Source of the DNA: a virus
Taxonomy: Duplodnaviria > Caudoviricetes
Length of the DNA: 55,735 nt
Virus record (IMG/VR): IMGVR_UViG_3300028790_000007
Location: 1 to 55,735 of that record
Direction: 5' to 3' (one strand)
Made by a program: the position numbers and the translations under genes. Under the pieces are notes generated by a model. That model did no database searches. It was given only the letters and a program-made list of their open reading frames with translations, and was not told where the DNA came from. This document shows, piece by piece, positions 3,177 through 33,732 of this stretch; the first letter of the stretch is position 1, and the number at the start of each line of letters is the position of its first letter.

Positions 3177-5153
3177 TCAGGCGGCGAGGATGGCCGCCGT
3201 GTCGGCGGTGCCCGCGGTCATGCCGGTCGGCTGGAGGTCGGTGACCAGCCGGACAGCTTCGACGCCGCGGTGGGCGACACCCTCAAAGGTCTCGGAGAAC
3301 TGCTTGTAGCGGTTGACCTGGTTGAGGGAGGAGTCGCGGACGACACCCAGGTCCATGCTGCCGCCGTCGAGGTGCAGCATGTCCCCTTCGCGCCACAGCA
3401 GGGTCTCCACCTGGGCGGGGAAGTCGGGCACGGCCGCGTTGTCGGTGAGGGCGGCGTAGAACTGGTTGGCCATCGTCACCTCGGAGCCCCCGGCGACGGT
3501 CGCGGGGCGGCCGTCCAGGTGCCAGGTGATGTTGATGTTGCGGGCGGCGAACCAGGAGTTGATGGTGGCGTTGGCGACGGCGAACGCCTCCCGGATGTCC
3601 GTGCCCGACCCCACCCCGGCGCCCAGCATCAGGTCGGCGCGGATCGCGTCACGCCACCAGATGGGCTTGACGGCGCGGAGGGCGATGGCCTCGTCCAGGC
3701 GGTAGAAGTTGCGGAACGCGGCGATCAGCCGGTCCGTGGCGAGCAGCTCGTCCCGGATCGCGGACACGACCACCCCGGCGGTGACGGTGGTGGACAGAGC
3801 GGCGATCTGGGTGAGCAGACGGTTCTCCGTCAGCCGGGCGTGCGCGATCTGGGATGCCTGCACGTTGGCGGCGGTGGCCTGCGGGTCGAAGCGGGCCGTC
3901 ATGTTGGAGAAGGTCATGCACATGGTGATGGCCTCCACGTACGCCTCGGCGTCGTCGGGGCACTCCACGTCGATGCACGGTTTGACCTTGGGCTCGGTGT
4001 CCGGGTCGCCGGTGACGGCGGCGTCGTCGGCGAGGGTCCAGATACCGGTGGCCCCGGCGAAGTCGCCGAAGGAGACGTGCTGCCGCCAGCGGATACCTCC
4101 CCCACCCTGGCCCTGGACACCGAAGTTGGTGAGGGCGTCGCGGACGGGGCGGGCGACGGAGCCGAGCACGGGCACGTCGTAGTCGAGGTTGAGGGGGGCG
4201 CACAGCCCCCCGGCGGCGACGATCGCGCCGTTGGCGAGGGCGGCCTGCGCCGAGGCGACGAGGGTGGCCTGGTCGGTGGCGGCGTCGATGAGCTGCGTGT
4301 TCTGCGCGGCATCGTCACCGAGGAAGCGCTCCGCCGGGTAGGAGGTTCGCAGCGAGGCGACGGGCACCTGCTCGCCGTCGCCTCCGCTGGTGTTGCGGAG
4401 GGCGTGGCGGCGAAGGTTGATGGCCTCCCCGAGCTGGTCGGCGGTGGCGATGGTCGCCCCCACCTCCAGCCCGGCGCGCTGGTTCCCGGCGGAGGCGACG
4501 AGGGTGGCGGTGGCGCGGGGGGCGACGAACCCGGCGGGCTCTCCCCCGGCCGAGTTGGCGGCGCGGTTGCGGGTCGAGGTGGAGGAGGAGGGGACAGCTC
4601 CGGGCCGCCCGGCGGCCTGCACACGGCGACGCTGGCCCGCGGAGGCCGCGACGGGCTCAGGGGCGGCCTGCGAACCGGCGGGCTGGCTGTCGCCCTCACC
4701 CTCACCGTCCGAGCCGTCTCCGGTGCCCTCGTCGCCTTCCTCGTCGTCCTCCGGGCCGTCCTCGGAGCGGGGGGCGAGGCGGGCCAGGGCCTCGTCACGC
4801 TGCCGCTGCGCCTCCTCCGCCTCGGCGGCGATAGCACCCTGCCGCTCCTCGGCGACCTCGCGGGCGTCGGCGAGGGCGTTGATGCGGGCCAGCACCTCGG
4901 GGGTGATCGGGTCGTCGGAGGCGCCGATGGCCTGGCCCTCCGCGACGGCGGCGTCGATGACGGCGGCCAGCTCGTCGGCGGACAGCCCGGTGAGGGCCTC
5001 GGTGATCTGGTCGCGGGTGGGGAGGGGCTGGCCCTCCTCTACGTCGAGGAACGCCAGCGGGTCGGGGGTGTCCTCGCCGTCGGCGATGAGGGCGAGCAGG
5101 CGGCCGTCCGCGGCGAAGGCGGCGCGGGGGGTGGCGGTGCGGGTGCAGTACAT
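3177..5153 (-). CDS. Major capsid hexamer protein with N-terminal acidic scaffold-like domain
   Basis: 658 aa; AAGGLCAPL..YD...RPVRDAL, GGGIRW, KPCIDVECP, DLGVVRDSSLN.VN.Y..F.ETFEG motifs. Confidence 0.85.
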   Translation of the reverse strand: MYCTRTATPRAAFAADGRLLALIADGEDTPDPLAFLDVEEGQPLPTRDQITEALTGLSADELAAVIDAAVAEGQAIGASDDPITPEVLARINALADAREVAEERQGAIAAEAEEAQRQRDEALARLAPRSEDGPEDDEEGDEGTGDGSDGEGEGDSQPAGSQAAPEPVAASAGQRRRVQAAGRPGAVPSSSTSTRNRAANSAGGEPAGFVAPRATATLVASAGNQRAGLEVGATIATADQLGEAINLRRHALRNTSGGDGEQVPVASLRTSYPAERFLGDDAAQNTQLIDAATDQATLVASAQAALANGAIVAAGGLCAPLNLDYDVPVLGSVARPVRDALTNFGVQGQGGGGIRWRQHVSFGDFAGATGIWTLADDAAVTGDPDTEPKVKPCIDVECPDDAEAYVEAITMCMTFSNMTARFDPQATAANVQASQIAHARLTENRLLTQIAALSTTVTAGVVVSAIRDELLATDRLIAAFRNFYRLDEAIALRAVKPIWWRDAIRADLMLGAGVGSGTDIREAFAVANATINSWFAARNINITWHLDGRPATVAGGSEVTMANQFYAALTDNAAVPDFPAQVETLLWREGDMLHLDGGSMDLGVVRDSSLNQVNRYKQFSETFEGVAHRGVEAVRLVTDLQPTGMTAGTADTAAILAA

Positions 5154-11382: not shown

Positions 11383-14300
11383 TCACACGTCGGGGATGCG
11401 GTTGATGAGGGCCTTGAGGGCGTTGAGCCGTCGGCGGGCGGTGGCCTTCTGCTCCCGGTCCATGTAGTTGGAGTAGGCCAGCTCGTCCTCGTAGATGCTG
11501 GCGCGGTCCTGGAGGGTCCGGCGGGCGGTGTGGGCGTCGCTGATGTAGATCTCGCCGTCGCGGATGCCCAGGCCGTGCGCCTCCCCCGAGTCCTCCATGA
11601 CCTCCATGGAGTAGCGCACCTCATCGAGGATCTCGGGGGTGGGTTTGCGGCCGCCCACGCGGGTCAGTTCCCGCTCCGGCGCCGCGGGCACGCCGGGGGC
11701 GGGCGGCGGGGGCTGCTCGCGGGCCCGTTTCGCAGCGGACGCCTCGCAGCGGCGGCAGGTGGCTTTGACGGGGTCGTCGCCGGGCCCGATGTAGGTGTTA
11801 CGCGGGGTCTCCGAGTTGCACAGCGATCTCCAGGCGTGGTGGTTGTCCTCGTCAATCTCCACGAAGTGGGTTTTCTCGCCGGTGATGGTGCGGGTGACGA
11901 GAAGCGGGATGCGCTGGCCGAGGAGGTCGGCCCGGTCGCGGGCCTCATCGATGCGGGTCAGTTCGATCACCCGGTTCGCGGCTCTCACCTGGTCGAAGGT
12001 GCCCGCGGTGGCGGTGGCGGCGGTCTGTTCGGCGGCGCGCCGTTCCAGGGCGGAGCGGGTCCGCGCGGAGTCCTCGGCGAGGGCGGTGGGCGGGGCGACG
12101 GGTTCGGCGGCGACGGGGCGCCTCAGGTCGGGCATCCGGTTGTCGTGGGAACTGATCCGCGGGTCCACGGTGGCGGTCCAGCCGGGAACGAGCTGGTCGG
12201 GCTTCTGCTCCCGGTAGGCGGCGCGGCCCAGCTCGTCCAGTTCGGCGCGGGCGCGGGCGCCGTCGGAGTAGATGGGCATGTAGTCGCAGTGGCAGCCCTT
12301 GTGGTCGCCGGGCGCCATGCTGCGGCCGATCCAGTTGGCCTCCGTGGGGGTGGCGAGCACCGGGTCATCCCAGGAGGTGAATACCTGGCCGTCGAGGTCG
12401 CGGTGCGGCTTGAAGGGGCGGGAGGAGATGCCGTACGCCCACTCATTCTCGTGGGCGACCACGTTGCGGTCGGCGAGGAACGTCTGGAGGAGGCGACCGG
12501 AGGTGAGGCCGGACAGCGGGGGGAGGCCGGTGGCGTCGGAGGCGAGACCTCCGGCGACGGCGAGGGCGGAGCGCAGCACACCGGGAGGGACGCGGGTCGC
12601 GGGCACCTCACCGCGGTCGGGCAGGCTCAGGTCGGGTTCGTAGAGGGCGCCCTCCGCGACGGTCAGCAGCTCCCCTTCGAGGGCGGGCCAGGACAGCTCC
12701 ACGGCGTCGGCGAAGGTGTCGCGGAGGGAGGCGACGGCCCGCATCACGGTCGGGTCGTCGCGGCGCAGCCCGGTCAGTTCGGCGGCCGTGTCCATTGCCT
12801 CCTCGGCGGCGGCCAGCGTCCACTCGGTGTACTGGCCGCGGAACCGTTCGAATGCCTCCGCGAGTAGCTCCTGCTCCTCGGCGCCGAGGGCGGCGACGAG
12901 GGTGCGGCCCATGACGGCGGCCACCCGTTCACCGGGCACCCCGGCGGAGGCGGTGCGGGCCTCCGGGTTGCCGTTGGCTTTGGAGCGGAGCCGGTTCCCA
13001 GCCCGTTCGAGGGCCCGGTTGAGGGCGGCGTCGGCGGCGGTGGTGAGGCGTTCCCGGAGCTGCCGATCAATGTCGAGGAGGCGGCGGGATAGGCGGCGGG
13101 ACCGGTCGGTGACGGGGGCGGGCGGGTCGGGGGCGGCGGCGGTGATCGCGGGCTGCTCGTTGCCGACGGTGCCGGGCGGCCCGGCGGGGGTGGCGCCGGG
13201 CACGATGCCGGTGTGCGGCAGGTCGAGGCCGAGGGCGGCGCCGACGCTGTCCGGTTCGTATCCGGCGCGCAGCAGGTTCCCGGCGATCACCGCCACCTGG
13301 GCGAGGAGGGCGGCGGACATGCCGGTGGTGCCGATGGCCTCGTCGGGGGCGGCCTGCGCCTCCTCGGGGGCGTCGGACTCGTCGAAGCCGAGGATGCGGC
13401 GGTGGGCTTTGCCGGAGATGGTGCCGCGGTCGTAGGCGTTGTTGGCGGCTTCCCGCTGGTCGGGGGGGGTGACGAGGGAGGCGGCGTCGTAGCCGATGAC
13501 GACGCGCTCGATCTGCTCGGTGGTCCAGGATGCGACACCCAGGTCCACGGCTGTCTGCAGCCGGGACCGCATGTAAGCGAGGGTGAGGGCCTCGCAGCCG
13601 TTGATGGTGATGGGCTCCTGGTGGTGCTTGAAGGTGTCGGAGTCCACCTGCCACACGTTCCAGTGGTTCACGTCGGCGTAGCCGGTGATGACCTCGGGGG
13701 GCACGTCGAGGCCGATGCCGAGGCGGGCCAGCAGCCGGGTTTCGAGGGCGGCCAGCTTCTCGTCCATCGGCCGGTCGACGGTGAGGTGCCGGATTTTGTC
13801 GAGGTATTCGGCGGGGCCGCGGAGGACACCGGGGACGACGGAGGCGGCGGAGCCGTCCTGGGAGAGGGGGGTGATGAGCTGGGTGGTGAGGTCGGCCTGG
13901 AACTCGTCGGCTTCCTCGTCGGCCTCGTCGTCGGTGTTGGGCGGGGGGGACAGCTCGTCGGGGACGAGCATGAAGCCGTTTCCGGCGGCGCGGGACCGCA
14001 GGGCGGCGTCGGTGGCGCGCTCGATCAGCAGCAGCCGTTCGCAGACTCCGGCGAGGGATCGCATCGGGGAGGACGGTTCCGCTGACCATTGGGTGTCGGC
14101 GGTCCACATGCGGTGCACGGTGGTGTAGGCCGGGTCGAGGTCTTGGGCCTCGGAGTCCTTGCCCTCCCCGGTGACCAGCCGGTAGTAGCCGGGCGGCCCG
14201 TCCGGGTCCATGGTGGGCAGGCGGCCGTCCTGGAATCTGACTTCGGACTTGGAGTAGATGCCCCACGATTCGCGGTCGCTGTCCGGGTCGTAGGTGCCGA

Positions 14301-14799
14301 CCAGCCACGCCTCCCCGGCGAGCTCGAAGTTGGCGACGAGGGGGGCGAGGATCGCGGACCCACCGCCGGAGGGGGCGGAGCCAGTGAGGACAGCGAGGGC
14401 ATCGCGGGCGGCCTCCACGAGGTCCTCGGGGAGGGCGTCGGGGTCGCGGGTGACGGTGGTGCCGTCCTCGGAGCGGATCAGGCCGTAGTCCTCGTCCAGC
14501 TCCACCACCTGGTCGGCGCCGCGGGGCCGGTCGGCGGCGGTGAGGCGGATGTGCGCCGAGTTGTGGGCGAGGAAGCGGATGACGTAGCCGACCTCCGGGA
14601 GGGCCCGCTCGTACACGAAGGCGGCGTCCTGCCAGGCGCGGGTGCGGCTGCCCTTGGCGATCTTGGCGCCCAGTTCGGGGGTGATCTGGCGGGCGGCGGC
14701 GGTGAGGGTTTTGGTGCGGGCGAACACGGCCGCCGTCAGTGTCGGGGGGGCCTCGGGGGCGGGCGGGCGGAACAGGTCGAGGAGCTTGGGTCGGGCCAC
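11383..14799 (-). CDS. Portal protein fused to MuF-like domain and extra C-terminal domain
   Basis: 1138 aa; portal motifs (WQ..A, PEV.Y, GEAWLV, SPMRS, RLGIGLDVPPEV.TG....NHW); MuF-like FKPHRDLDG..PGDHKGCHC. Confidence 0.8.
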   Translation of the reverse strand: MARPKLLDLFRPPAPEAPPTLTAAVFARTKTLTAAARQITPELGAKIAKGSRTRAWQDAAFVYERALPEVGYVIRFLAHNSAHIRLTAADRPRGADQVVELDEDYGLIRSEDGTTVTRDPDALPEDLVEAARDALAVLTGSAPSGGGSAILAPLVANFELAGEAWLVGTYDPDSDRESWGIYSKSEVRFQDGRLPTMDPDGPPGYYRLVTGEGKDSEAQDLDPAYTTVHRMWTADTQWSAEPSSPMRSLAGVCERLLLIERATDAALRSRAAGNGFMLVPDELSPPPNTDDEADEEADEFQADLTTQLITPLSQDGSAASVVPGVLRGPAEYLDKIRHLTVDRPMDEKLAALETRLLARLGIGLDVPPEVITGYADVNHWNVWQVDSDTFKHHQEPITINGCEALTLAYMRSRLQTAVDLGVASWTTEQIERVVIGYDAASLVTPPDQREAANNAYDRGTISGKAHRRILGFDESDAPEEAQAAPDEAIGTTGMSAALLAQVAVIAGNLLRAGYEPDSVGAALGLDLPHTGIVPGATPAGPPGTVGNEQPAITAAAPDPPAPVTDRSRRLSRRLLDIDRQLRERLTTAADAALNRALERAGNRLRSKANGNPEARTASAGVPGERVAAVMGRTLVAALGAEEQELLAEAFERFRGQYTEWTLAAAEEAMDTAAELTGLRRDDPTVMRAVASLRDTFADAVELSWPALEGELLTVAEGALYEPDLSLPDRGEVPATRVPPGVLRSALAVAGGLASDATGLPPLSGLTSGRLLQTFLADRNVVAHENEWAYGISSRPFKPHRDLDGQVFTSWDDPVLATPTEANWIGRSMAPGDHKGCHCDYMPIYSDGARARAELDELGRAAYREQKPDQLVPGWTATVDPRISSHDNRMPDLRRPVAAEPVAPPTALAEDSARTRSALERRAAEQTAATATAGTFDQVRAANRVIELTRIDEARDRADLLGQRIPLLVTRTITGEKTHFVEIDEDNHHAWRSLCNSETPRNTYIGPGDDPVKATCRRCEASAAKRAREQPPPPAPGVPAAPERELTRVGGRKPTPEILDEVRYSMEVMEDSGEAHGLGIRDGEIYISDAHTARRTLQDRASIYEDELAYSNYMDREQKATARRRLNALKALINRIPDV

Positions 14800-20851: not shown

Positions 20852-21292
20852 TCAGCAGGTGCGGCGGGCCCGCACGCGGGACGCCACCAGGCTGTCCGGT
20901 CTGTACCGCTTCCCGGCGGGGGACAGCATGTAGCCGTCCGACAGCTCCACCCACTTCTCGGGGGCGTGCGTGTGGGGGTGGTTGCGGCGGCGCTTCTTCT
21001 CCAGCTCATCCAGCACCGGCTCCGCGGGGTGGGTGGTTCCGGCGGCGTAGGCCTCTGCCGGTATCTCCTCCTCCGTCTCCGCGAGGTCGTACAGGACACC
21101 GCGCCAGCGGGCGTACATGGCGCATGCCACCTCCGCGTAGGCGGCCTCGATGGCGCGGGCGAGGTCGGAGGGGCGGCGGGCGCAATACGCCCAGCCGGGC
21201 GTGAACGGGGTGCGCAGGACCAGACCACCCTCGGGGGCGCGGGTGACGATCAGCCGCAGCTCCTCCGGCTCATGCGGTCGCTGCGCTGTCAC
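20852..21292 (-). CDS. Hypothetical protein coupled to TerL
   Basis: GTGA overlap with the terminase stop. Confidence 0.55.
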   Translation of the reverse strand: MTAQRPHEPEELRLIVTRAPEGGLVLRTPFTPGWAYCARRPSDLARAIEAAYAEVACAMYARWRGVLYDLAETEEEIPAEAYAAGTTHPAEPVLDELEKKRRRNHPHTHAPEKWVELSDGYMLSPAGKRYRPDSLVASRVRARRTC

Positions 21293-23160
21293 CGGCGGTC
21301 ACCCACACCGGGGAGGGTAGTGGCGGCGCTGGTGGTTGTCCTGGCGCGGCGGACAGCCAGCAGGTGCGTCACCAGCCACACGTAGGCGTCCATGCGGCCG
21401 GGGGAGGCGGCGCCTTCCTGCCATTGGGTCAGCTCCTGCTCCAGTTCGGCGAGCACACCGATGTGGGAGACCTTGCCGGTTTCGACGGCGACGGCGATGG
21501 GGGTGGCGCGGGCCCGTTTGCCGACGGAGGCGTGGACGGCGACGAGCCGCGCCGGGGGTGTCTCCAGTACGCCACCGGACAGTAGGCCGGAGGTGATGCG
21601 GTCGTACACCTCTCCCAGCTCGCGGAGGTCGTCGGGGGACACCTCCACTTCCAGGATGGACAGCCGCTGTTCGGCGGCGGCCCAGATGCGGGCGGCGTGC
21701 CGCAGCGCGTCGTCGCGGACCTCCGGCCGGTCGAGGTCGAGGGGTTCGGGGGCGCGGCCGGTGAACGGGTCAGCGTCCTCATCGGGGCGGAGGAGGGTGA
21801 GGAGGGTGCGCCACTGGCGGACGATCCGCGCCCAGGCGTCCTGCAACTGGGAGCGCATCAACGGCCCGGCCAGGTTGGCCTCCCAGACAAGGTCGTCGGC
21901 GGCGAGGTCGAGGACCATCAGCCAGGCGCGGCGGGCCCACTGCGCGGCGGACATGGCGCCGGAGCGGTCGGTGGTGATGTAGGCGCGGCCGTCGGTGCCG
22001 CGGTAGCCGCCGATCAGCCCGGCCTCGTCGTCGCCCCCGGCGGATGTGTCGACGGCGACAGCGGTCCGGCTACGGGTGGTCTCCCAGTCGGCGGGGCGGC
22101 GGCTGCGGCTGATGTGCTCGTAGGCGAACACGGCGCCCGTCGGTGGGGTGGGGTGCTGCTGGTAGAGGGAGCCCCACACCATCTCGCCGACGGCGGCGCG
22201 CTGCGCGGCCCACTGCTCGGGGGTGCGGCCGCGGGCGGACACAAGGTAGGTGCCCGGGTCGCGGTTGAGGGAGTCAGGTAGCCAGGTGCGGTCGTCCTCG
22301 CGGCGGCGTTCGGCTTGGGCGGGCACGTTGACGTACCGCCAGGTGCGGGCCTCCTCCGGCAGGTTCAGCTCGTTGCCGACGATGTACCCGGCGAGGTCGT
22401 CCGGGTGCCAGCGGGTCTGCACGACGATCAGCAGGGACGCGGACGGCAGTCGGGTGAGGGCCACATTCTGGTACCAGTCCACGACGGCCTTGCGGTGCTT
22501 GGGGCTGTCCGCGGCCTCCCGGTTCTTGTACGGGTCATCGATGACGAGCACGTCGAGGGGGCGGCCCGTCAGCCCACCCTTCATGCCGACCGCGTAGACG
22601 CCTCCGGCGTGCCCGGCGAGGCCGAACCGGGACTTGGAGGTGGAGTCCCAGCGCAAGGTGATGCCCAGCAGGTCGTCGTCCAGGGAGCGGGGGTTGAGGG
22701 GGGTGCCGGAGCCGTGCTCGGCGATCCAGTTGCGGATGGGGGAGGAGAACTCGGCGGCGATCTCCGATTCGAAGGAGGCGATACCGACACGCCAGTTGGG
22801 GTTGCGCAGCAGCAGCCACAGCACCCCGGCCATGGTGACGCGGCGGGACTTGCCCTCCTGGGGGGGCATGAACACGCCGAGGCGGACAGCCTCCCCGGCC
22901 TCTAGGCGGGTTGCGGCCTGCACCAGTTCGGTGTCGAGGAGCCGCAGGGCGGGGGTTTCGACAGTGACCAAAGGGTCGAGGCGGTGGGCGAGGGCGCCGG
23001 GCGACGGGTAGCGCATGCGGCGCTGCCGGTGGGCGACCTCGCGGGCGACCCGTTCGGCGACGGCGACACGCTCATGCGGGGGGAGGTCGCGGGTGGCGTC
23101 CTCCAGTGCGGCGCGGAGCTGCGCTCGGGACAGCCCGGCGAGGCGGGCGGGGATGGTCAC
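21289..23160 (-). CDS. terL: Terminase large subunit
   Basis: MPPQEGKS (Walker A), IIDDP-like VIDDPYK (Walker B), QTRWHPDDL, SLYQQ.P, nuclease motifs VAVD and P.RMDA. Confidence 0.92.
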   Translation of the reverse strand: MTIPARLAGLSRAQLRAALEDATRDLPPHERVAVAERVAREVAHRQRRMRYPSPGALAHRLDPLVTVETPALRLLDTELVQAATRLEAGEAVRLGVFMPPQEGKSRRVTMAGVLWLLLRNPNWRVGIASFESEIAAEFSSPIRNWIAEHGSGTPLNPRSLDDDLLGITLRWDSTSKSRFGLAGHAGGVYAVGMKGGLTGRPLDVLVIDDPYKNREAADSPKHRKAVVDWYQNVALTRLPSASLLIVVQTRWHPDDLAGYIVGNELNLPEEARTWRYVNVPAQAERRREDDRTWLPDSLNRDPGTYLVSARGRTPEQWAAQRAAVGEMVWGSLYQQHPTPPTGAVFAYEHISRSRRPADWETTRSRTAVAVDTSAGGDDEAGLIGGYRGTDGRAYITTDRSGAMSAAQWARRAWLMVLDLAADDLVWEANLAGPLMRSQLQDAWARIVRQWRTLLTLLRPDEDADPFTGRAPEPLDLDRPEVRDDALRHAARIWAAAEQRLSILEVEVSPDDLRELGEVYDRITSGLLSGGVLETPPARLVAVHASVGKRARATPIAVAVETGKVSHIGVLAELEQELTQWQEGAASPGRMDAYVWLVTHLLAVRRARTTTSAATTLPGVGDRR

Positions 23161-24053
23161 CGGGGGCCGCGGACGCGGGCGCGGCGCGGGTCGTCGGGGG
23201 CGAGCATGGCGACCTCGCGGCGGGTGTAGGTGCGGGTGGCGAGCCAGCAGCCGATGCAGGGCGACGGGACAGGCACCCAGTGGCCGCAGCCGCCGGGACA
23301 CGGGTACTGCTCCAGGGCGGTCTGGTGGCGGGGGAGGCCGGTCATGCGTTTCGGCCGAGGGCGATGCAGCCCGCGACGGCGACGATCACCACGATCCAGC
23401 CGAGGGCGGGGTGGGCGGAGTCGAACACGGCGAACCGGTAGCCCAGCCACATGGCGGGGGGAATGCAGCAGAGGGCCAGCCACCACGTCACGGGGTCACT
23501 GTACGGGGGGCAAGCTGGCTCCGTTGTTGGCGGTGCGGCGGTGGTGGTCGTGGTCGTCTAGGACCAGGGCCTGACTGTCGGGCCCGCTGAACCAGCCCTC
23601 CCATTTGCCGCAGCGGCACCACACCAGGTATCCGGCGGCGGTGGTGCGGCCGTGGAGGGTGTGCATGGTGTCGTCCTCCTCGTCCATTACCGCCACCAGC
23701 GGAGGGAGTGGAGGACGGCGACGGCGGCGCCGACCGCACCGAGGAGGACCCCCACGCAGGTGTCGGTGCCGGGCGGTGGGGGTCTCAGAGGATGACGCCG
23801 TTTCGGGTGCGCGTTTCTAGGCCGAGCAGCCATGACTCCACCTCGGACAGGGCGACGATGCGAACGATGTGCCCGTCCACGACGGGCAGGTCAGCGGTGT
23901 CCAGCTCGCTCAGGTGGTTGTGGAGGGCGTGGATGACGTTGGCGGCGGCCTGGAAACCGCGGTCCAGCTCCTGATTGTCGGGGCGTCCCCGGCGGTCAGG
24001 CATGGCCGGGCTCCGGGCTCGGGGAGGGGGTGCCGGGCACAGGGCTCTCCTTC

Positions 24054-26382: not shown

Positions 26383-26793
26383 TTACTGGCGGGTAGGTAG
26401 CTGCTCGATCTGGTGCCCGGCGAGCTGTTCGACGTGCTGCCACAGGAGGTGGCCGGGGGTGAAGTACTCGCGCTCGACTCGCAGGTGGGCGAACTGCCGG
26501 TGGCGGGTGGACTCCAGCCGCCGGTCGCCGGGCTCGGTGGCGAGGAGGTCGCAGCCGAGGGAGGACATGCGCTTGTGGACGCTGGCTGAGTAGCCGATCT
26601 TGACGAGTCCCCCGACGCGGGGGCGCTCCTCGGGGGTCCAGGCGTAGTAGACGACGGCAGTGGAAGGCGGTTGCGGCGGTACCAGGACAGCAGCCACGGC
26701 GGCGCGGTGTACGGGGCAGAGCCAGACACTAACGGCGACCTCCTCTCCGGGGGCGGTGCAGCCGTAGGCGACGCAGGGGCGGGTGTCTCGCAT
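26383..26793 (-). CDS. T5orf172/GIY-YIG-like endonuclease
   Basis: VVYY...VKIGYS...R...L..LLATEPG....E..RH.QF...R..REYF. Confidence 0.75.
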   Translation of the reverse strand: MRDTRPCVAYGCTAPGEEVAVSVWLCPVHRAAVAAVLVPPQPPSTAVVYYAWTPEERPRVGGLVKIGYSASVHKRMSSLGCDLLATEPGDRRLESTRHRQFAHLRVEREYFTPGHLLWQHVEQLAGHQIEQLPTRQ

Positions 26794-26994
26794 GGAGACA
26801 GCCTAGCGGGGGGTTGAGTCCCCATGATCATTCTTGCGACCTGCGGGTTTGTCGATAGATTGATCTTGGTCAGGTCCAGGGACAGCCCGCGCGTGGCCTG
26901 CTCTGTGAGCGCTTCGTAGGCGGCGGTGCCGGGCTGCACCGCGGTCGTGATCACGCCCGTCTCCGGAGTCCAGCCGGTGACGATGATGGCCGGG

Positions 26995-27720
26995 TCAGGC
27001 ATCGCCATCCTCATCGCCCCACTCGTCGTCACTGTCGAGGTCGAGGGAGGCCGGGTCATCGTCGGCCGCGAGGAGGGCGCCCTCCATCTGCTCGGTGTCG
27101 ATGCCGACGGCGCCGAGGACAGCATCCGTGGCGGCCTCGATGCGGCGCTCCGCCTCGTCCTGGCTGATTTGGACGCGGGTGGTGGCGGCCCAGGCCTGCG
27201 GGTTCTTGCGGACGAGGAAGTCGCGGGCGGCGCGCCAGTCGTCGGCGAACGCGGCCCGCCAGTGGGTGACGGCGGCGACCTCGGCGGAGGTCTGCGCTTG
27301 CGTGATGGCGGCCAAAAAGTCCAGGTAGGGGACCTCCGCGGGGTCGAGGGCCCACATGGCGGGCGGGTCGTCGGAGTGGCAGGACGGGCACGGGTCGAGG
27401 GTGGCGTAGGAGCGGGTCTCCCCCGGCCCTAGGGGGCGATCGTCGGCCTCCAGGTTGAGGCGGTGCACCTCCTGCACCTCCTCGGTGCGCTCGGTGTCGC
27501 AGGTGGGGCAGTAGAGCCCTCCGGGGTCGTGCCGGTCGCGGAGGGCGAGGGCGGCGCGGCCGCGTTGCAGCCACAGCTTGAGGGTGGACTCGCCGATGCC
27601 GCAGTACTGGGCGGCGGTGTTGAGGTAGTTCCCGGCCTTGACGACGCGGACGATGCGGTCTTGCAGTTCGGGGGTGAGGAGGGATCGGCGGCCCATGCGG
27701 GGTGGGGGCTCCTCGGTCAT
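26995..27720 (-). CDS. Terminase small subunit-like HTH protein with Zn-finger insertion
   Basis: GR.S.LTPE....I...V.AGNY...AA...GI..ST...WL.RG; DWRAA..FL.RK.P..W; inserted CPTC..CPSC. Confidence 0.65.
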   Translation of the reverse strand: MTEEPPPRMGRRSLLTPELQDRIVRVVKAGNYLNTAAQYCGIGESTLKLWLQRGRAALALRDRHDPGGLYCPTCDTERTEEVQEVHRLNLEADDRPLGPGETRSYATLDPCPSCHSDDPPAMWALDPAEVPYLDFLAAITQAQTSAEVAAVTHWRAAFADDWRAARDFLVRKNPQAWAATTRVQISQDEAERRIEAATDAVLGAVGIDTEQMEGALLAADDDPASLDLDSDDEWGDEDGDA

Positions 27721-28906: not shown

Positions 28907-29524
28907 CTACAGGGGGGTGAGGTTGGTGTGCAGGGTGCCGCGGGCGGTGCCGATGATGGCGTCGTGGTAGTCGTGGTCGGACACCAGGCGGGCGGCATCC
29001 ACGAGCAGCACCTCCACACCCCAGGCGGAGGCGTGGAGGGCGAGGTTGGCGGCGGCGGTGCGGCGGTTCTTGATCCACGTCTGGTTTTCGGGGCGGTCGA
29101 GGACGCGGGTGCGGGCGGACCGGCGGTGCGCGGCCAGGTTGGGGCCTTGGAGGTGGAGGAGCTGCACCCGCCATCCGGCCTGCACGGCGTCGGTGAGGAA
29201 GCGGCGGTGGGCGAGGTGGGAGCCCTCGGCGAGGATCAGCGACGACTCGCGGGCGGCCTGCCCGGAGTGCAGCCACGTTTCGGCTTCGGTGATGCAGGAC
29301 GCTTCGAGGGCGTCGGTGCCGGAGGCGGATTCGCGGAGGCGGCCGAGTTCGACGGCGCAGCACACGTTGGGGGTGCCGCGGTCGAACAGCAGGTCCCGGT
29401 GGGGGGCTTTGCCGGGTTCTTTCGGCAGGTAGATGCGCTCCCAGTCGGCGGTGATCTCCCGCATGAGGGTGGATTTGCCGACACCGGGTTCACCGGACAG
29501 GTAGACGAGGCGGAGGTCACTCAT
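28907..29524 (-). CDS. P-loop nucleotide kinase of the type linked to phage base modification
   Basis: GEPGVGKST, SGTDAL, I.AEG..L motifs. Confidence 0.7.
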   Translation of the reverse strand: MSDLRLVYLSGEPGVGKSTLMREITADWERIYLPKEPGKAPHRDLLFDRGTPNVCCAVELGRLRESASGTDALEASCITEAETWLHSGQAARESSLILAEGSHLAHRRFLTDAVQAGWRVQLLHLQGPNLAAHRRSARTRVLDRPENQTWIKNRRTAAANLALHASAWGVEVLLVDAARLVSDHDYHDAIIGTARGTLHTNLTPL

Positions 29525-29720
29525 GGGGGGTGGGTTCCTGGTCGTGTCCGGGGGAGGGGCAGAGGACGGCGGGGAAGCCGTGCGGGTCCATCCTCCATCC
29601 GGCGGCGACGGCGCGTGCGGTGGCGTCGTCGGTGTCGGTGGCCTGGGGGAGGGTGAACGCTGCCCGGCAGGGCTGTCCGAGGCGGGTGCCGTCGCAGGTG
29701 ACGACGGCGTACACGGTCAT
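29517..29720 (-). CDS. Small Zn-binding protein (CDG..C..GWR..CP)
   Basis: Apparent paralog of 25844-26050. Confidence 0.55.
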   Translation of the reverse strand: MTVYAVVTCDGTRLGQPCRAAFTLPQATDTDDATARAVAAGWRMDPHGFPAVLCPSPGHDQEPTPHE

Positions 29721-30332
29721 CGTGTCCGCTTCCGCAGGAGGAGGGTCAGGCCGAGGTGGGTGCGGCTGCCGCCCATCGGCCAGTAGTCGGGGAGGCGGAT
29801 GCCGACGCCGAGGGCGTGCCCGGTGCGGATCAGCCACAGGCGGGGCATGGTGTCGGTGATGGTGACGGTGGCGGCCAGGAAGTGGGGTCGTCTCATTCGA
29901 TGACCTCGGACAGCCGCAGCGGGGTCTCCCCGTCGGCCATGGCTTTGGCCTGGTTCTCGGCGTACACCCAGGGCTGGTGGCGGGGCAGCATGTGGGCGCA
30001 CTGCGCGAGGTGGAGGGCGACGAGCCGTCTCAGCTCCCCGTAGGTGAGCGTGATGCCGTCCTCGGGCCAGATCCCCCCGTCGGGTCGGTGGCGGCGCTCC
30101 TGCGGCTGCTCGTGAGGCTCGCGGGGCCCTTCCGCGAGGGTGGGGGGCTGCCAGCCGGGGCGGGTGTCGGGGACCTCGGTGAGGACGGGGAGGGCGTCGA
30201 GGTCGGTGGGGCGGAGGACGAACCCGGCGACTCCCTGCCCGGCGAGGGCCTCGGAGGGTAGTGGGGTGGGGTCGGGGGTTGTCATCGGGTGTCCTCCTCG
30301 CCGTAGGCTGTCGGGGGGTTTAGTGTGTGGGT

Positions 30333-30635
30333 ATGTCGTCGCCGATGTCCACGCCACTCCCCCGTCGCCGTCACTCCGAGGGTGCCAGGGTCACCGACCG
30401 CACGCGCCGCGGGTCGTCCCCGGCGTCCGCCCGCACCGGCCGGTCGCAGTTCGCCCCCTACTTCAAGCTGGCCACGTTCGTACCCCGGACGTGCGCGTGG
30501 CAGGAGACGAAGGGCACCTACTGGACGGTCGAGGAGGCGAAGGGGGCGGCGCGGCGCGGCGTCGAGACACGGCTGGTGCGGGTCGCCCCCGGCCTGCCGG
30601 GCGGCCGCGAGGTGCTGGAGACGTTCACGGTCTGA
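30333..30635 (+). CDS. Hypothetical protein, lone plus-strand gene
   Basis: TAGTGT-N6-ATG leaderless-type start; converges on the modification operon. Confidence 0.45.
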   Translation: MSSPMSTPLPRRRHSEGARVTDRTRRGSSPASARTGRSQFAPYFKLATFVPRTCAWQETKGTYWTVEEAKGAARRGVETRLVRVAPGLPGGREVLETFTV

Positions 30636-30637
30636 CC

Positions 30638-31234
30638 TCACAGCGTGGCGCGGCGGACGGTCCGGTAGGCCTCCGCCCTGGCGTGCCCGATCCGATGCGC
30701 CCAGCGTTCGGAGCGGGCACGCAGCGCGCCCGGCTCCACGTAGGGATGCCCGGCCTGGGAGGTGTGCTCGGCGACGGCGTCGAGCTGCCGGGTCAGGGAC
30801 TCCTCCGCCAGCGGCACGATCGTGTCCGGCGCCCACTCGGGCGGGGTGGAGGGGGTTTCGTACTCCACGACGGTGAGGGCGCTGCGGCGGGTCGCGGAGC
30901 GGATGGCGTGGGCGACGGCCCGATGGTCCTGGTGCTCATCGAGGAGCGGGGGCCCGGCGACGATCCGGGCGCGGGTCTGCTCGATGCCCCATTCGATGGC
31001 GGCGATCAGCAGCGGCATGTCCTCTCCCAGCCGCCCATCCTCCAGGTGGCGTTGGATCAGGTCGCAGCCCGCGGCCTTCGCCCCCAGGACGGCCTCCGCG
31101 GCGCGCCCGGTTGTCGCCGCGGACAGGCAGAGGACGGTCGAGGAGGAGCCGAGGAGGTAGGCGCAGCCCAGTTCGGCGTCGTCCGGGTGGGGGGAGACGA
31201 GGAGCGCGCCGTACTCGTTGTCGGGGTATCTCAC
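30638..31234 (-). CDS. PIG-L/LmbE-family N-acetyl-sugar deacetylase
   Basis: LLVSPHPDDAELGC and HQDH metal-binding motifs; H.SQ. Confidence 0.88.
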   Translation of the reverse strand: MRYPDNEYGALLVSPHPDDAELGCAYLLGSSSTVLCLSAATTGRAAEAVLGAKAAGCDLIQRHLEDGRLGEDMPLLIAAIEWGIEQTRARIVAGPPLLDEHQDHRAVAHAIRSATRRSALTVVEYETPSTPPEWAPDTIVPLAEESLTRQLDAVAEHTSQAGHPYVEPGALRARSERWAHRIGHARAEAYRTVRRATL

Positions 31235-32007
31235 CGGGCGGCGGCCTTGGGGCGGCGGTCCCGTAGCCGGACCTCGGTGAACGGGCGGGACTTCTTGGCG
31301 GTGTTGACGGAGGCGAGGTCTGGGTAGCGGCGGGCCAGTTCCCGCGCCGACCAGTCGATGCGCTCGGGGGTGCGGGTCGCCTGGAGACCGCCGGGCTCGG
31401 TGTAGTAGTTCGCCCGGAACGTGTAGTAGTCGATGCGGACGACGGCGCCGTCATGCAGGTAGTGCCGGATGGACCGCTCGTAGTCTTCCTTGTCGTCCAG
31501 GGTGACCTGCTGGTAGTCGCCCCCGTCGAGGATCGTCCCGAAGATGCCCGCCTCGATGTAGCGGAGGTCGGTGCGGACTCCGGGCCGCATGAAGTACGGG
31601 TTGGGCACCGGGTAGATGCCCCACAGGGTGGCGCCCGCGGCGCGGCAGTGCCCGAAGCCCTCCTCGAACAGCTCGGGGAGGGAGGCGACCGGCACGGTGG
31701 TCTTCGGGTCGATCCACTGCATCACGTCCGTCAGGTCGTCATCGACCTCCATGACGGGCCCCCGCCAGTTGTCGGCGATGAAGTTGCGGGTCCGCATGAT
31801 GGAGCCGGGGGCGCCGGACACGGCAACAGCAGGTAGGGGCAGGTCGGCGGTGCGGATGGCGTCGGTGTAGCTCGCCTCCTCCTCGGCGGTGCCGACGACG
31901 AGGACCACGTCAGCGGGCCGGACACCGCGGGCGTACAGCAGGGGGAGGGTTTTCCGGGTCAGGCACCGCTCCCGGCGGTAGGACGGGACGATGACGGGGA
32001 TGCTCAC
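31231..32007 (-). CDS. TET/JBP-associated GT-A glycosyltransferase (TAGT/GREB1-like)
   Basis: VPSYRR, DDD (DxD), LWGIYP, KEDYE, PGG motifs. Confidence 0.8.
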   Translation of the reverse strand: MSIPVIVPSYRRERCLTRKTLPLLYARGVRPADVVLVVGTAEEEASYTDAIRTADLPLPAVAVSGAPGSIMRTRNFIADNWRGPVMEVDDDLTDVMQWIDPKTTVPVASLPELFEEGFGHCRAAGATLWGIYPVPNPYFMRPGVRTDLRYIEAGIFGTILDGGDYQQVTLDDKEDYERSIRHYLHDGAVVRIDYYTFRANYYTEPGGLQATRTPERIDWSARELARRYPDLASVNTAKKSRPFTEVRLRDRRPKAAAR

Positions 32008-32951
32008 GGCGCCATCAGCGCCGGGTCGTCGGGTCCGGCGGCCACGTCCGCCTCGGAGGGGAGGAGCAGCGGCGGGGCGGGGGTGATCGTGTGCGCCCTG
32101 GGATCGGCGGCGAAGCCCTGCCCGGCGGCCATAGTGCGTTCCCGTTCGGTGCGGCGAACCTGGGCGGTACGGGTCTCCTCCGCGAAGGTGTGGCAGTCCT
32201 TCATGCCGCGCAGCGCGTAGTAGACGACGGAGAAGCGGTAGCCGTCCGACCGCGTGAGGCGCATGGGGGTGACGCCGTGGACGAGGGCGTGGCCGCAGAA
32301 GAACACGGCCCACCCGTCCCGGCAGGCCACGGTCAGGTCGTACTCGGGCAGGTGCAGGTGGCCGCCGTCGCAGGCGCGGCGGATGACGGGCATCGCCGAC
32401 CAGGTGGGGAAGTTGAAGCCGTCGCGGTGGTACGGCAGTTGGCTGTTCTGGTTGACGACACCGGAGGTCCAGGTGGTCCCGGCCATCTTCCACTCGGGCA
32501 GGACCTCCCGCATGGTCTCCTCGTCGCGGTCGGCAATCGTGGGGTCGATGCCGCGGAGCATGTCAAGGAGGCGGACGGCGTAGGCGTCAAGGGTGGCCTG
32601 CTCGGCGGGCTGCTCTTTCGCGAAGCTGGTCGAGTTGCAGGCTTCCCGGCGCTGCACGGGGCGGCGCGGGGACCAGCCGAACACGCGGGAGGCGTTGCGG
32701 CGGCCGGAGGCGGCCCGGTACGTCTCCCGGATGTCGACGGCGCGGACGGCCCGGCGGAGGTCCGCCACATCCCCCAGCGGCAGATACGCCAGGACCGGGT
32801 CGCTGGTCTCGGCGTCGGTGAACACGGTCGGGGCGGTGACGTTGGGGACACGCTCACCCACGTCGGTGCCGACCAGCTCCGTGGCGTCCTGGGCGGGCAG
32901 GACACGTTTGACCTCAGTGCGTTCGAGGGCGGCGGTGTCAGCTCTGTTCAT
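32004..32951 (-). CDS. TET/JBP-family 2OG-Fe(II) 5-methylpyrimidine dioxygenase
   Basis: WTSGVVN..LPYHRD..N (HxD), GG.L.LPEY, HGVTP, R.SVVYY. Confidence 0.88.
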   Translation of the reverse strand: MNRADTAALERTEVKRVLPAQDATELVGTDVGERVPNVTAPTVFTDAETSDPVLAYLPLGDVADLRRAVRAVDIRETYRAASGRRNASRVFGWSPRRPVQRREACNSTSFAKEQPAEQATLDAYAVRLLDMLRGIDPTIADRDEETMREVLPEWKMAGTTWTSGVVNQNSQLPYHRDGFNFPTWSAMPVIRRACDGGHLHLPEYDLTVACRDGWAVFFCGHALVHGVTPMRLTRSDGYRFSVVYYALRGMKDCHTFAEETRTAQVRRTERERTMAAGQGFAADPRAHTITPAPPLLLPSEADVAAGPDDPALMAP

Positions 32952-33732
32952 GGGGCTCCTCGGCGGCCTTCTCGGCGACGGCCTCCGCGGCGGCGACGGC
33001 CTCCTCACTGATGGTCGCATCCGGGGCGGGTGGCTCCTCCCCGGTGCGGTCGGAGACGAGGGTCAGCAGCAGCGCCGAGTTGGATTCGACGCCGAGGTCG
33101 GCGGACAGCTTCGCCATGGACTCCACCACCCAGGCGTACTGGGCGAGGGGGAAGATGAGGGCGAGGAAGCGGGTGGCGCGGGACGCGTACCCGGCCTGGT
33201 ACTCGGCGTAGGAGGGGGTCTGCCGGACGTTGGTGCCGTCGGCGGAGCCGCCCTCCCCGTAGGAGGAGCCGGGGGCGCCGACATGGGCGGCGAGGCCCAG
33301 CGGCTCGTCGGGCGGGAAGTCGGCGTCGGCCTCCTCCAGGGACGCCAGCAGGTCGTCGTAGTCGTCCAGGTCGTAGCCGGTGCCCTCCAGGTCCTCCCCC
33401 AGCTCGCGGAGGAGGGTCACCAGGGCCCGGTCGTCGTAGGTGCCGAGGTCGCTGGTGCGGTTGTCGGCGATGACGATGCGGCGGGCGGCGGCGTCGTCCA
33501 CGTCCAGCCACTTGACCTCCGCCTCTACCCAGCCTTCCTGCTGCATGGCGGCGAGGGTGTTGTTCCCGGCGAGGACGTGGCCGGTGCGGTACTGGACGAT
33601 CAGCGGCCGGTACTGGCCGTTGCGGCGGAGGCTGTCCCGGATGGCGTCGAGGTCCCCGCGGCGGGCGTTGCCGGGGTAGGTGGTGAGGGAGTCGAGCGGC
33701 ACCATCTCAGTGCCGGTGGAGGGTGCGGTCAC
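32938..33732 (-). CDS. ParB-like N-terminal domain protein
   Basis: L..YP.NAR....I..SL...GQ.RPLIV....VLAGN...A...ADNR. Confidence 0.85.
   Translation of the reverse strand: MTAPSTGTEMVPLDSLTTYPGNARRGDLDAIRDSLRRNGQYRPLIVQYRTGHVLAGNNTLAAMQQEGWVEAEVKWLDVDDAAARRIVIADNRTSDLGTYDDRALVTLLRELGEDLEGTGYDLDDYDDLLASLEEADADFPPDEPLGLAAHVGAPGSSYGEGGSADGTNVRQTPSYAEYQAGYASRATRFLALIFPLAQYAWVVESMAKLSADLGVESNSALLLTLVSDRTGEEPPAPDATISEEAVAAAEAVAEKAAEEPHEQS

Follow-up and report, generated by a model that had tools for sequence, protein, structure and literature searches.

A candidate thymidine hypermodification pathway leading to an amino-sugar analogue of base J in a ParB-TET/JBP-glycosyltransferase-PIG-L cassette of an uncultured phage

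Base J of kinetoplastids is made in two steps: the TET/JBP enzymes JBP1 and JBP2 oxidize thymine (T) to 5-hydroxymethyluracil (5hmU), and the GT-A-type glycosyltransferase JGT O-glycosylates the resulting hydroxymethyl group. The sugar is glucose, it undergoes no further tailoring, and JBP operates without a ParB protein. In the synthesis of mycothiol (MshA/MshB), bacillithiol (BshA/BshB) and glycosylphosphatidylinositol (GPI) anchors (PIG-A/PIG-L), the recurrent sequence is transfer of N-acetylglucosamine (GlcNAc) followed by de-N-acetylation by a PIG-L-family enzyme, and the donor used by the partners of these PIG-L-family enzymes is uridine diphosphate GlcNAc (UDP-GlcNAc). Here we analyze a locus that encodes candidate enzymes for both sequences of reactions. 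The IMG/VR virus record IMGVR_UViG_3300028790_000007 (Duplodnaviria; Caudoviricetes), a complete record of 55,735 bp rated 100% complete and analyzed over its whole length (hereafter, the window), carries at positions 30638-33732 a cassette of four overlapping minus-strand genes that encode, from 5' to 3', a ParB-like protein, a TET/JBP dioxygenase, a glycosyltransferase (GT) and a PIG-L/LmbE-family deacetylase. The best reading of this cassette, and one that we regard as reasonably probable, is a pathway that would hydroxylate, glycosylate and then de-N-acetylate thymine, leading from T to 5hmU, from there to an N-acetylhexosaminyl derivative (HexNAc-O-hmU) and finally to the corresponding amino sugar (HexN-O-hmU). 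Gene content, motifs, folds, synteny and co-inheritance form the basis of this reading, under which the cassette would carry out post-replicative thymidine hypermodification.

Set against base J synthesis, the window would share the oxidation of T to 5hmU by a TET/JBP enzyme and the GT-A O-glycosylation of the hydroxymethyl group, and it differs in having a ParB-like protein, a GT that is TAGT-like and not JGT-like, and a deacetylase. With MshA/MshB, BshA/BshB, PIG-A/PIG-L and the teicoplanin enzyme Orf2* it has in common the combination of a GT and a zinc hydrolase of the PIG-L type bearing HPDD and HxDH motifs, as well as a predicted product with a free glucosamine amine. Here the acceptor would be DNA, the GT is of the GT-A/TAGT type, whereas MshA and BshA are of the GT-B type, and neither a GNAT match nor a follow-up ligase or acyltransferase was found in the window.

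Among phage systems, the ParB-dependent thymine dioxygenases of 5mYOX clade C1 (O'Toole et al., PNAS 2026, PMC13229309) resemble the window in having a TET/JBP protein directly after a short ParB, no C5-methyltransferase (C5-MT) and a setting among DNA hypermodification genes beside the terminase. According to that paper, ParB-associated phage 5mYOXs oxidize thymine in vivo and in vitro, oxidation of thymine on double-stranded DNA needs the cognate ParB, and linkage to ParB is the defining mark of the thymine-oxidizing subclass. The same source links clade C1 mainly to kinases, GATases and amino-acid:DNA transferases and describes GTs as linked mainly to the ParB-independent clade, unlike the arrangement in the window. 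The phage C5-MT/TET/GT systems (Burke 2021, PMC8256090; Pyle 2023 preprint) share with the window post-replicative oxidation followed by GT-A glycosylation, as well as TarP as a structural neighbor of the GT; as those sources describe them, they have been shown to place HexNAc and di-HexNAc on DNA, and, unlike the window, they start from 5-methylcytosine (5mC) and need a C5-MT. The ParB-TET pair and a P-loop kinase are shared with the thymidine hypermodification systems based on a 5hmU DNA kinase and aGPT-Pplase (Lee 2018, 2022, as cited in PMC11955845), such as that of Rhodococcus phage Tonitrus, which, unlike the window, has an aGPT-Pplase2 and neither GT nor PIG-L. Finally, the Stenotrophomonas phages DLP3 and DLP5 (PMC7326821) have in common with the window a PIG-L deacetylase, a GT (BshA-like in their case) and a ParB domain protein. 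No TET is among the genes listed in the available text of that report, where PIG-L lies beside WcaG, WecE and a methyltransferase in what looks like a sugar-nucleotide pathway, and DLP3 DNA is reported there to have resisted all 15 restriction enzymes tried.

The closest counterparts of the cassette are found in cultured actinophages. The order ParB-TET-GT-PIG-L is present in 18 GenBank actinophage records, and phages such as Mycobacterium Acadian, Rich, Baee and Donny and Arthrobacter Altadena and Lilmac1015, among others, share with the window the order ParB-TET-GT-PIG-L(-kinase)-terminase at 35-50% protein identity. As in its mycobacteriophage relatives, the cassette of the window lies upstream of the terminase genes, and the same layout is seen in Mycobacterium phage Rich gp1-gp6. 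The window differs from these phages in having two to three extra small open reading frames (ORFs) between PIG-L and the kinase, and in its major capsid protein, which shares no more than 39% identity with its counterpart in any cultured phage, Arthrobacter and Gordonia phages coming closest. On this capsid divergence, the window reads as an uncultured, high-GC actinophage distant from cultured phages.

These records bear on how much of the pathway is new. A first-pass annotation, made from the sequence of this DNA without database searches, had presented it as a candidate new pathway, a claim that has to be narrowed. The same cassette is already in GenBank, where the PIG-L gene is labeled 'glucosaminyl deacetylase' in 13 of the 19 records with a PIG-L homolog, and a 2014 article (PMC4111573) attributes to Iyer et al. 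2013 the prediction that Mycobacteriophage Acadian, itself a carrier of the cassette, has GlcNAc-5hmU, so that, going by that citation, the core idea is at least partly in print as a prediction. The mechanism put forward in that annotation fares better, in that the protein families, the folds of GT and PIG-L, the intact catalytic residues of all three enzymes, the lack of a C5-MT match and the coupling of GT and PIG-L all fit it. The new element is the predicted de-N-acetylation, together with the amino-sugar base that would result; the upstream half of the cassette was characterized in 2026, and the window is a distant new member of a known cassette. The annotation had also stated that no characterized deacetylation step was known in such a pathway, and our searches agree, since no deacetylation step in DNA hypermodification is described in the searchable literature. 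The terms 'deacetylase', 'PIG-L' and 'LmbE' have 0 occurrences in the main texts of O'Toole 2026 (PMC13229309) and Burke 2021 (PMC8256090), as do 'deacetylase', 'PIG-L' and 'amino sugar' in the Pyle 2023 preprint. In the available text of a 2026 Nucleic Acids Research paper on glycosylated 5-hydroxycytosine, deacetylase appears in a reference title alone, and a phage genome announcement carries 'glucosaminyl deacetylase' as an annotation in its accessible part.

The stop-to-start overlap of the four cassette genes, first noticed by eye, can be read directly from the sequence. All four ORFs are present on the minus strand; the TET stop and the GT start overlap by 4 nt in the tetranucleotide GTGA, as do the GT stop and the PIG-L start, and the ParB stop overlaps the TET ATG at 32951 by 14 nt (or by 83 nt if an alternative ATG at 33020, which gives a TET protein of 338 aa, is used). 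Third-position GC lies between 0.92 and 0.95 in each of the four frames, and the repetition of the ParB-TET-GT-PIG-L synteny in unrelated phages places the cassette far beyond chance. A promoter and terminator scan of the window yielded nothing exceeding shuffled expectation. The motifs that had been picked out in the proteins (HRD, HGVTP and RFSVVYY in the dioxygenase; PSYRR, DDD and KEDYE in the GT; HPDD and HQDH in the deacetylase) all occur in the translations, with catalytic residues that are invariant in relatives. Hidden Markov model and structure searches, which the first-pass annotation had called for, uphold the four family assignments and, through AF2 models compared with Foldseek, the folds of GT and PIG-L.

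The dioxygenase gene (32004..32951, minus strand) encodes a 315-aa TET/JBP 2-oxoglutarate (2OG)/Fe(II) 5-methylpyrimidine dioxygenase matching PF12851 (E 4.8e-8) and phrog_6059 (E 2.1e-85), which is predicted to convert T to 5hmU. A precomputed table likewise assigns PF12851.14 to this protein and to many of its relatives. No substitution occurs across 36 sequences at H175 and D177 (HRD), H225 (HGVTP) and R239 (RFS), which correspond to the HxD...H iron triad and the arginine that binds 2OG. A sequence search of the PDB returned weak matches (E ~0.03) to two chains of a Naegleria Tet-like dioxygenase, aligned over the strands that carry the distal histidine and the arginine, together with two further rows at chance level (E 0.7 and 0.97) to unrelated proteins, an exonuclease partner and an AMPK subunit. 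In phrog_6059 and in many GenBank/RefSeq records, homologs of this TET bear the label queuine tRNA-ribosyltransferase or DpdA, which looks like a propagated misannotation. We rejected the corresponding labels ('queuine tRNA-ribosyltransferase', 'DpdA-like tRNA-guanine transglycosylase') for the window protein, in which the 2OG/Fe(II) triad is present and which matched TET/JBP alone, with no match to tRNA-guanine transglycosylase or DpdA.

Thymine, rather than 5mC, is the likely substrate of this enzyme. No match to a C5-methyltransferase (PF00145), an N6/N4-methylase or ThyA was detected anywhere in the 55.7 kb record, and the lack of a C5-MT in a genome rated 100% complete points to T. So does the genomic context, because a ParB homolog lies upstream of TET in 78 of the 80 IMG/VR loci closest to the window by TET (L015-L094), the remaining two beginning at TET, and because ParB-associated 5mYOXs have been shown to be thymine dioxygenases (PMC13229309). 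The TET of the window bears two marks of this ParB-dependent subclass, an adjacent ParB homolog and no neighboring C5-methyltransferase.

The ParB-like protein itself (32938..33732, minus strand; 264 aa) is predicted to activate the adjacent thymine dioxygenase. It matches phrog_723 (E 4.7e-45) and eight more PHROG families, among them phrog_6392 (E 1.2e-42), with five of those eight labeled ParB-like, and 29 of its 30 named matches in the ESM Atlas are ParB_N clusters (top score 0.97). Searches of Pfam ParB_N, PDB sequences and NCBIfam were empty for this protein, so its ParB-like assignment comes from PHROGs and the ESM Atlas. The first-pass annotation had treated ParB as a bystander; the PNAS 2026 work, which reports that such ParBs activate their cognate thymine dioxygenase, argues otherwise. 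Because the same ParB-dioxygenase architecture needs its cognate ParB in that study (PMC13229309), the ParB-like protein is probably an activator of the thymine oxidation step. In the first step of the proposed pathway, as judged from these characterized relatives of the same architecture, the dioxygenase and its ParB-like partner would together oxidize thymine in phage DNA to 5hmU.

The GT gene (31231..32007, minus strand, GTG start) encodes a 258-aa GT-A glycosyltransferase that matches the TAGT family (PF20691, E 7.7e-5) and is predicted to attach a HexNAc to 5hmU in DNA at its hydroxymethyl group. It reads as a divergent TAGT member, in that 41 of 42 aligned homologs match TAGT at E <= 0.01, the best at E 2.3e-15. 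Residues D89, D90, D91, K173 and D175 are invariant in the 42 sequences, and the family is basic, with a median isoelectric point (pI) of 8.2. The AF2 model (predicted local distance difference test, pLDDT, 95.8) has as its top Foldseek matches in the PDB RmlT, TarS, TarP, WrtF and GnT-I, all of them GT-A enzymes, of which TarS and TarP use UDP-GlcNAc. According to the Pyle 2023 preprint, phage glycosyltransferases proven to act on DNA have TarP as their best PDB match, and a HexNAc-5mC is made by a phage GT69 together with its epimerase, which provides a precedent for HexNAc on DNA. No epimerase or GNAT match was found in the window genome, which points to a host metabolite as the donor sugar, probably a nucleotide sugar such as UDP-GlcNAc. 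Wherever a GT is present among the 80 IMG/VR loci, it follows TET within 21-294 nt (14 of 14 loci). In the second step of the pathway, as family, fold and linkage suggest, the TAGT enzyme would thus draw on a host nucleotide sugar, most likely UDP-GlcNAc, to modify the hydroxymethyl group and yield a HexNAc analog of base J.

The last gene of the cassette (30638..31234, minus strand) encodes a 198-aa PIG-L/LmbE-family zinc deacetylase, predicted to de-N-acetylate the transferred HexNAc. Its match to PF02585 (E 1.1e-10) scores 42.5 bits, above the 28.2-bit cut-off. H16, D18, D19, H101, D103 and H104 are invariant in 24 sequences, and a profile-to-PDB alignment places the HPDD and DxHxDH motifs on the equivalent motifs of TT1542, BC1534 and BshB; we take the HPDD/HxDH residues to be the zinc ligands, following work on MshB and BshB. 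The AF2 model (pLDDT 94.6) has an LmbE-type Rossmann-like fold with no extra domain beyond the 198-aa core. Foldseek matched it to TT1542 (E 4e-11), BC1534, diacetylchitobiose deacetylase, BshB, Orf2* (teicoplanin) and the A40926 deacetylase Dbv21, with query TM-scores of 0.72-0.79 to BshB, diacetylchitobiose deacetylase and Orf2*, and MshB was among the most distant fold matches (E ~5e-6). Its PDB neighbors thus include the GlcNAc-conjugate deacetylases BshB, MshB, diacetylchitobiose deacetylase and Orf2*. Assignment as a BshB equivalog was rejected, the NCBIfam BshB1 match being weak (26 bits against a 182.5-bit cut-off). On family chemistry and its strict linkage to the GT, the PIG-L zinc hydrolase would, in the third step, strip the N-acetyl group and leave a glucosaminyl-type hmU whose amine is free and can be protonated. 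The likely benefit to the phage would be resistance to host nucleases and partial charge neutralization of its packaged DNA.

On sequence comparison, the TET-linked PIG-L proteins are a distinct group. The clade is small, comprising 24 clusters (90% identity) at E <= 5e-26, followed by a gap to 4e-11, and a comparison of 10,407 PIG-L representatives with its profile gives 30 at E <= 1e-30. Relatives in IMG/VR were retrieved by a profile scan, a single-protein scan of IMG/VR with the window PIG-L having found no relative. PIG-L loci at greater distance, drawn from bacterial and archaeal genomes and from metagenomes, were discarded as a source of context, as 0 of 160 had ParB, TET, GT or kinase nearby.

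In cultured actinophages, GT and PIG-L are coupled. Homologs of TET are present in 102 GenBank phage records, of GT in 20 and of PIG-L in 19, and the GT and PIG-L lists share an identical set of 18 actinophage accessions (12 Mycobacterium and 6 Arthrobacter records, representing 15 distinct phages). Outside this shared set are two Synechococcus phage records, which have GT only, and one unannotated fecal phage fragment with PIG-L only. The co-occurrence of PIG-L with TET and TAGT that the first-pass annotation had proposed as a check is therefore complete among the cultured actinophages, where 18 of 18 GT records also have PIG-L, and sparse in IMG/VR, where PIG-L is present in only 2 of the 14 GT-bearing TET loci. 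Across phages, 8 of 11 PIG-L-bearing loci have the order ParB-TET-GT-PIG-L, followed in 6 of those 8 by the kinase. One of the IMG/VR loci, in a viral contig of 48% GC (L057, 4215-11178), encodes in order a UDP-galactopyranose mutase, ParB, TET, GT and PIG-L, with a GT2 and a MobA-like nucleotidyltransferase farther along. This gene set suggests a larger glycan on DNA, possibly with galactofuranose, and the context favors the building of glycans on DNA over a mycothiol-type function. Taken with the window phage, this contig shows the GT/PIG-L pair to be conserved across very different phages.

Phylogenetic trees of the two upstream partners point in the same direction. On the GT tree (21 rows), the PIG-L-linked label needs 1 change, a value as low as which was reached in 0 of 500 shuffles; 7 of the 9 PIG-L-linked GTs form a clade (Shimodaira-Hasegawa-like approximate likelihood ratio test, SH-aLRT, 86), and the branch uniting all nine has only 13% support. 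The TET tree (FastTree, 86 rows) has several long branches and requires 5 changes of this label. With 1 change on one tree and 5 on the other, GT and PIG-L look like a module that is inherited together and has moved between dioxygenase lineages. Among the 80 TET loci, GT is present in 14, the kinase in 38 and aGPT-Pplase in 22, and GT and aGPT-Pplase occur together in 0, which argues that the ParB-TET core is joined to alternative tailoring modules of which GT plus PIG-L is a minority one. A further 25 of the 80 loci are without GT, aGPT-Pplase and kinase, which points to additional tailoring modules beyond those identified.

Distant phage homologs of PIG-L occur in a different setting. In two low-GC (29-33%) viral contigs (L010:5983-6612 and L011:5977-6600), they are found without TET and in sugar-nucleotide operons, together with an NAD-dependent epimerase, a UDP-glucose dehydrogenase, an ATP-grasp protein, a methyltransferase and a TOD1/MUCI70-like GT.

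A bolder form of the hydroxylation-glycosylation-de-N-acetylation pathway can be put forward tentatively, as an idea to which we give a little under an even chance. PIG-L would act on the DNA polymer, turning GlcNAc-O-methyluracil into a cationic glucosaminyl-O-methyluracil, which would be the first base in any DNA to carry an amino sugar and the product of the first hydrolytic 'unmasking' step in DNA hypermodification; GT and PIG-L would be a mobile two-gene module swapping between ParB-dioxygenase lineages, and in some phages the P-loop kinase would decorate the product further. If a glucosamine-bearing thymidine were indeed made, its cationic amino sugar would be a new chemical class among natural DNA bases and the PIG-L hydrolase a new enzyme type in the DNA-hypermodification toolkit. 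DNA with such a base should withstand many restriction and CRISPR nucleases, and the free amine would be a chemical handle through which sites of 5hmU or T could be labeled. Testing the hypothesis should be unusually simple, as laboratory strains of Mycobacterium smegmatis and Arthrobacter globiformis support the growth of phages with the cassette and a heterologous platform for ParB/5mYOX/GT expression has been published.

Several observations weigh against the proposed pathway, some of which feed the alternatives considered below. The profile matches of the first two enzymes fall short of their family cut-offs: TET scores 32.8 bits against PF12851, a near miss of the 34.9-bit cut-off with profile positions 13-162 of 164 covered, and the GT scores 23.2 bits against the 27.5-bit cut-off of PF20691, over profile positions 2-202 of 205. 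The three most distant phage PIG-L homologs (24-34% identity) are not adjacent to TET; two of these are the homologs of L010 and L011, and around the third (L013) no neighboring gene could be identified. A kinase of a family linked to 5hmU phosphorylation lies near the cassette and could divert or extend the pathway. The remaining points concern the donor sugar, the specificity of the PIG-L fold and the charge of the PIG-L clade.

The donors of the GT's GT-A neighbors in the PDB vary, comprising UDP-GlcNAc, UDP-glucose, TDP-rhamnose and GDP-fucose, and the PIG-L fold is not confined to deacetylases, as the hydratase GalB is also among the fold matches. In addition, 12 of the 14 GT-bearing IMG/VR loci do without PIG-L, which means that glycosylation does not need it. 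These facts would suit a cassette in which a non-acetylated sugar, such as the glucose of base J, is placed on 5hmU, with the PIG-L-fold protein hydrolyzing some other amide or ester or acting as a hydratase. We consider this unlikely, given that the full HPDD/DxHxDH set of metal ligands and catalytic base typical of deacetylases is invariant, that the best PDB neighbors of known function are GlcNAc-type deacetylases, and that PIG-L-linked GTs are split on the tree from GTs without PIG-L, as would fit a difference in donor.

The same end product could be reached by another order of events, in which PIG-L would first remove the acetyl group from the soluble donor, converting UDP-HexNAc to UDP-HexN, or from some other small-molecule precursor, and the GT would then move the amino sugar to 5hmU. 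Members of the PIG-L clade are acidic, with a median pI of 5.7 and a net charge of -5, in contrast to the basic GT family, which is unexpected for a DNA-binding enzyme and fits a soluble substrate at least as well; the protein is also small, with no additional domain that could hold DNA. Yet no nucleotide-sugar deacetylase appears among the PIG-L fold matches of known substrate (BshB, MshB, diacetylchitobiose deacetylase, Orf2* and Dbv21), and the gene order, GT before PIG-L, weakly fits action after transfer. To our knowledge, characterized members of the PIG-L family act after glycosyl transfer, which also counts against deacetylation of the donor, and we hold this order of events to be distinctly unlikely.

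There is a slim chance that GT and PIG-L do not act on DNA at all and stand beside ParB-TET by genome organization only, their targets being virion proteins, the host envelope or a thiol such as mycothiol, with PIG-L as an MshB-like auxiliary gene. Mycobacteriophages are known to glycosylate virion proteins, actinobacterial hosts use mycothiol, the mycothiol enzyme MshB is among the fold matches, and other phage PIG-L genes lie in sugar-nucleotide operons without TET. An auxiliary gene for mycothiol or the envelope was nonetheless rejected. The GT belongs to a TET-associated family, with almost all of its homologs matching TAGT; it directly follows TET in all 14 GT-bearing IMG/VR loci and, in the window, overlaps PIG-L by 4 nt; GT and PIG-L recur with ParB-TET in the 48% GC contig, for which a mycothiol-producing host is unlikely; MshB is a distant fold match in comparison with TT1542 (E ~5e-6 vs 4e-11); and none of the 160 more distant cellular and metagenomic PIG-L loci shares the context of the cassette. 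Weakest of all is the possibility, which we deem very improbable, that the dioxygenase acts on 5mC and the cassette makes glycosylated 5hmC (5-hydroxymethylcytosine) in the manner of the C5-MT/TET/GT systems: characterized phage TETs of clades A and B oxidize 5mC and are followed by GTs (Burke 2021, PMC8256090), and 5mYOX97 and 176 are reported to oxidize 5mC as well in vitro (PMC13229309), but the complete genome has no C5-MT match, its ParB linkage is that of the thymine-oxidizing subclass, and C5-MT is reported to co-occur with only 6% of mined 5mYOX pathways.

Downstream of the cassette, the first-pass gene set had omitted a 205-aa P-loop kinase (28907..29524, minus strand) three ORFs beyond PIG-L, which matches PF18751 (Ploopntkinase3, E 1.7e-33) at 116.1 bits against a cut-off of 27 and contains the Walker A motif GEPGVGKST. 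It is 47% identical to gp7 of Rhodococcus phage Tonitrus, a protein named 5-hmU DNA kinase by its authors on bioinformatic grounds, within what they describe as a ParB/TET/aGPT-Pplase2 system. It also matches phrog_800, 'terminase small subunit' (E 1.9e-15), and homologs of PF18751 kinases are often annotated as 'adenylate kinase' or 'terminase small subunit'. Kinase homologs are present in 411 phage records (376 of them from Mycobacterium phages, in which the kinase is often gene 1 and adjoins the terminase), as against 102 records with TET, so many copies of the kinase have no TET partner. The window cassette has no aGPT-Pplase homolog. In the 80 TET loci, kinase and aGPT-Pplase occur together in 18 (17 also with ParB) and the kinase occurs without aGPT-Pplase in 19; among the GT-bearing loci, a single one has the kinase, and this locus also has PIG-L. 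The protein is possibly a 5hmU-DNA or sugar kinase, or else linked to packaging, and it is an uncertain member of the pathway.

Between PIG-L and the kinase lie a 154-aa ORF (29893..30357, minus strand; third-position GC 0.87), with no Pfam or PHROG match and no homolog in the related loci examined, and a 106-aa ORF (29517..29837, minus strand) with a weak coding signal (third-position GC only 0.77) and no Pfam or PHROG match. A small ORF of at most 102 aa (30327..30635, plus strand; third-position GC 0.92) is convergent with PIG-L, their stops 2 nt apart, and matched no family in a Pfam scan. In gene calls for the 27-38 kb region, no other plus-strand frame has a coding-like composition; that this ORF belongs to the cassette is doubtful. 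Altogether, four small ORFs between the cassette and the small terminase gene, as well as four ORFs upstream of the cassette, have no Pfam or PHROG family.

The window has a GC content of ~73% throughout and nearly all of its genes on the minus strand; in keeping with this, every 2 kb bin across positions 1-55735 has a positive GC skew when read on the plus strand. PHROG matches identify a tape measure protein, a minor tail protein, the large and small terminase subunits, the portal and the major capsid protein. The small terminase subunit (26995..27720, minus strand; phrog_4102, E 7.8e-22) and the large subunit (21289..23301, minus strand; phrog_38, E 1.6e-65) have between them a 139-aa ORF (26383-26802, minus strand) with T5orf172/MUG113 (GIY-YIG-like) domains, which may be a homing endonuclease. 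Two structural genes appear to carry large extra domain(s): the 1138-aa portal ORF (11383-14799, minus strand), in which the portal profile match is limited to residues 24-635, and the 658-aa capsid ORF (3177-5153, minus strand), which matches cultured-phage capsids only from about residue 214.

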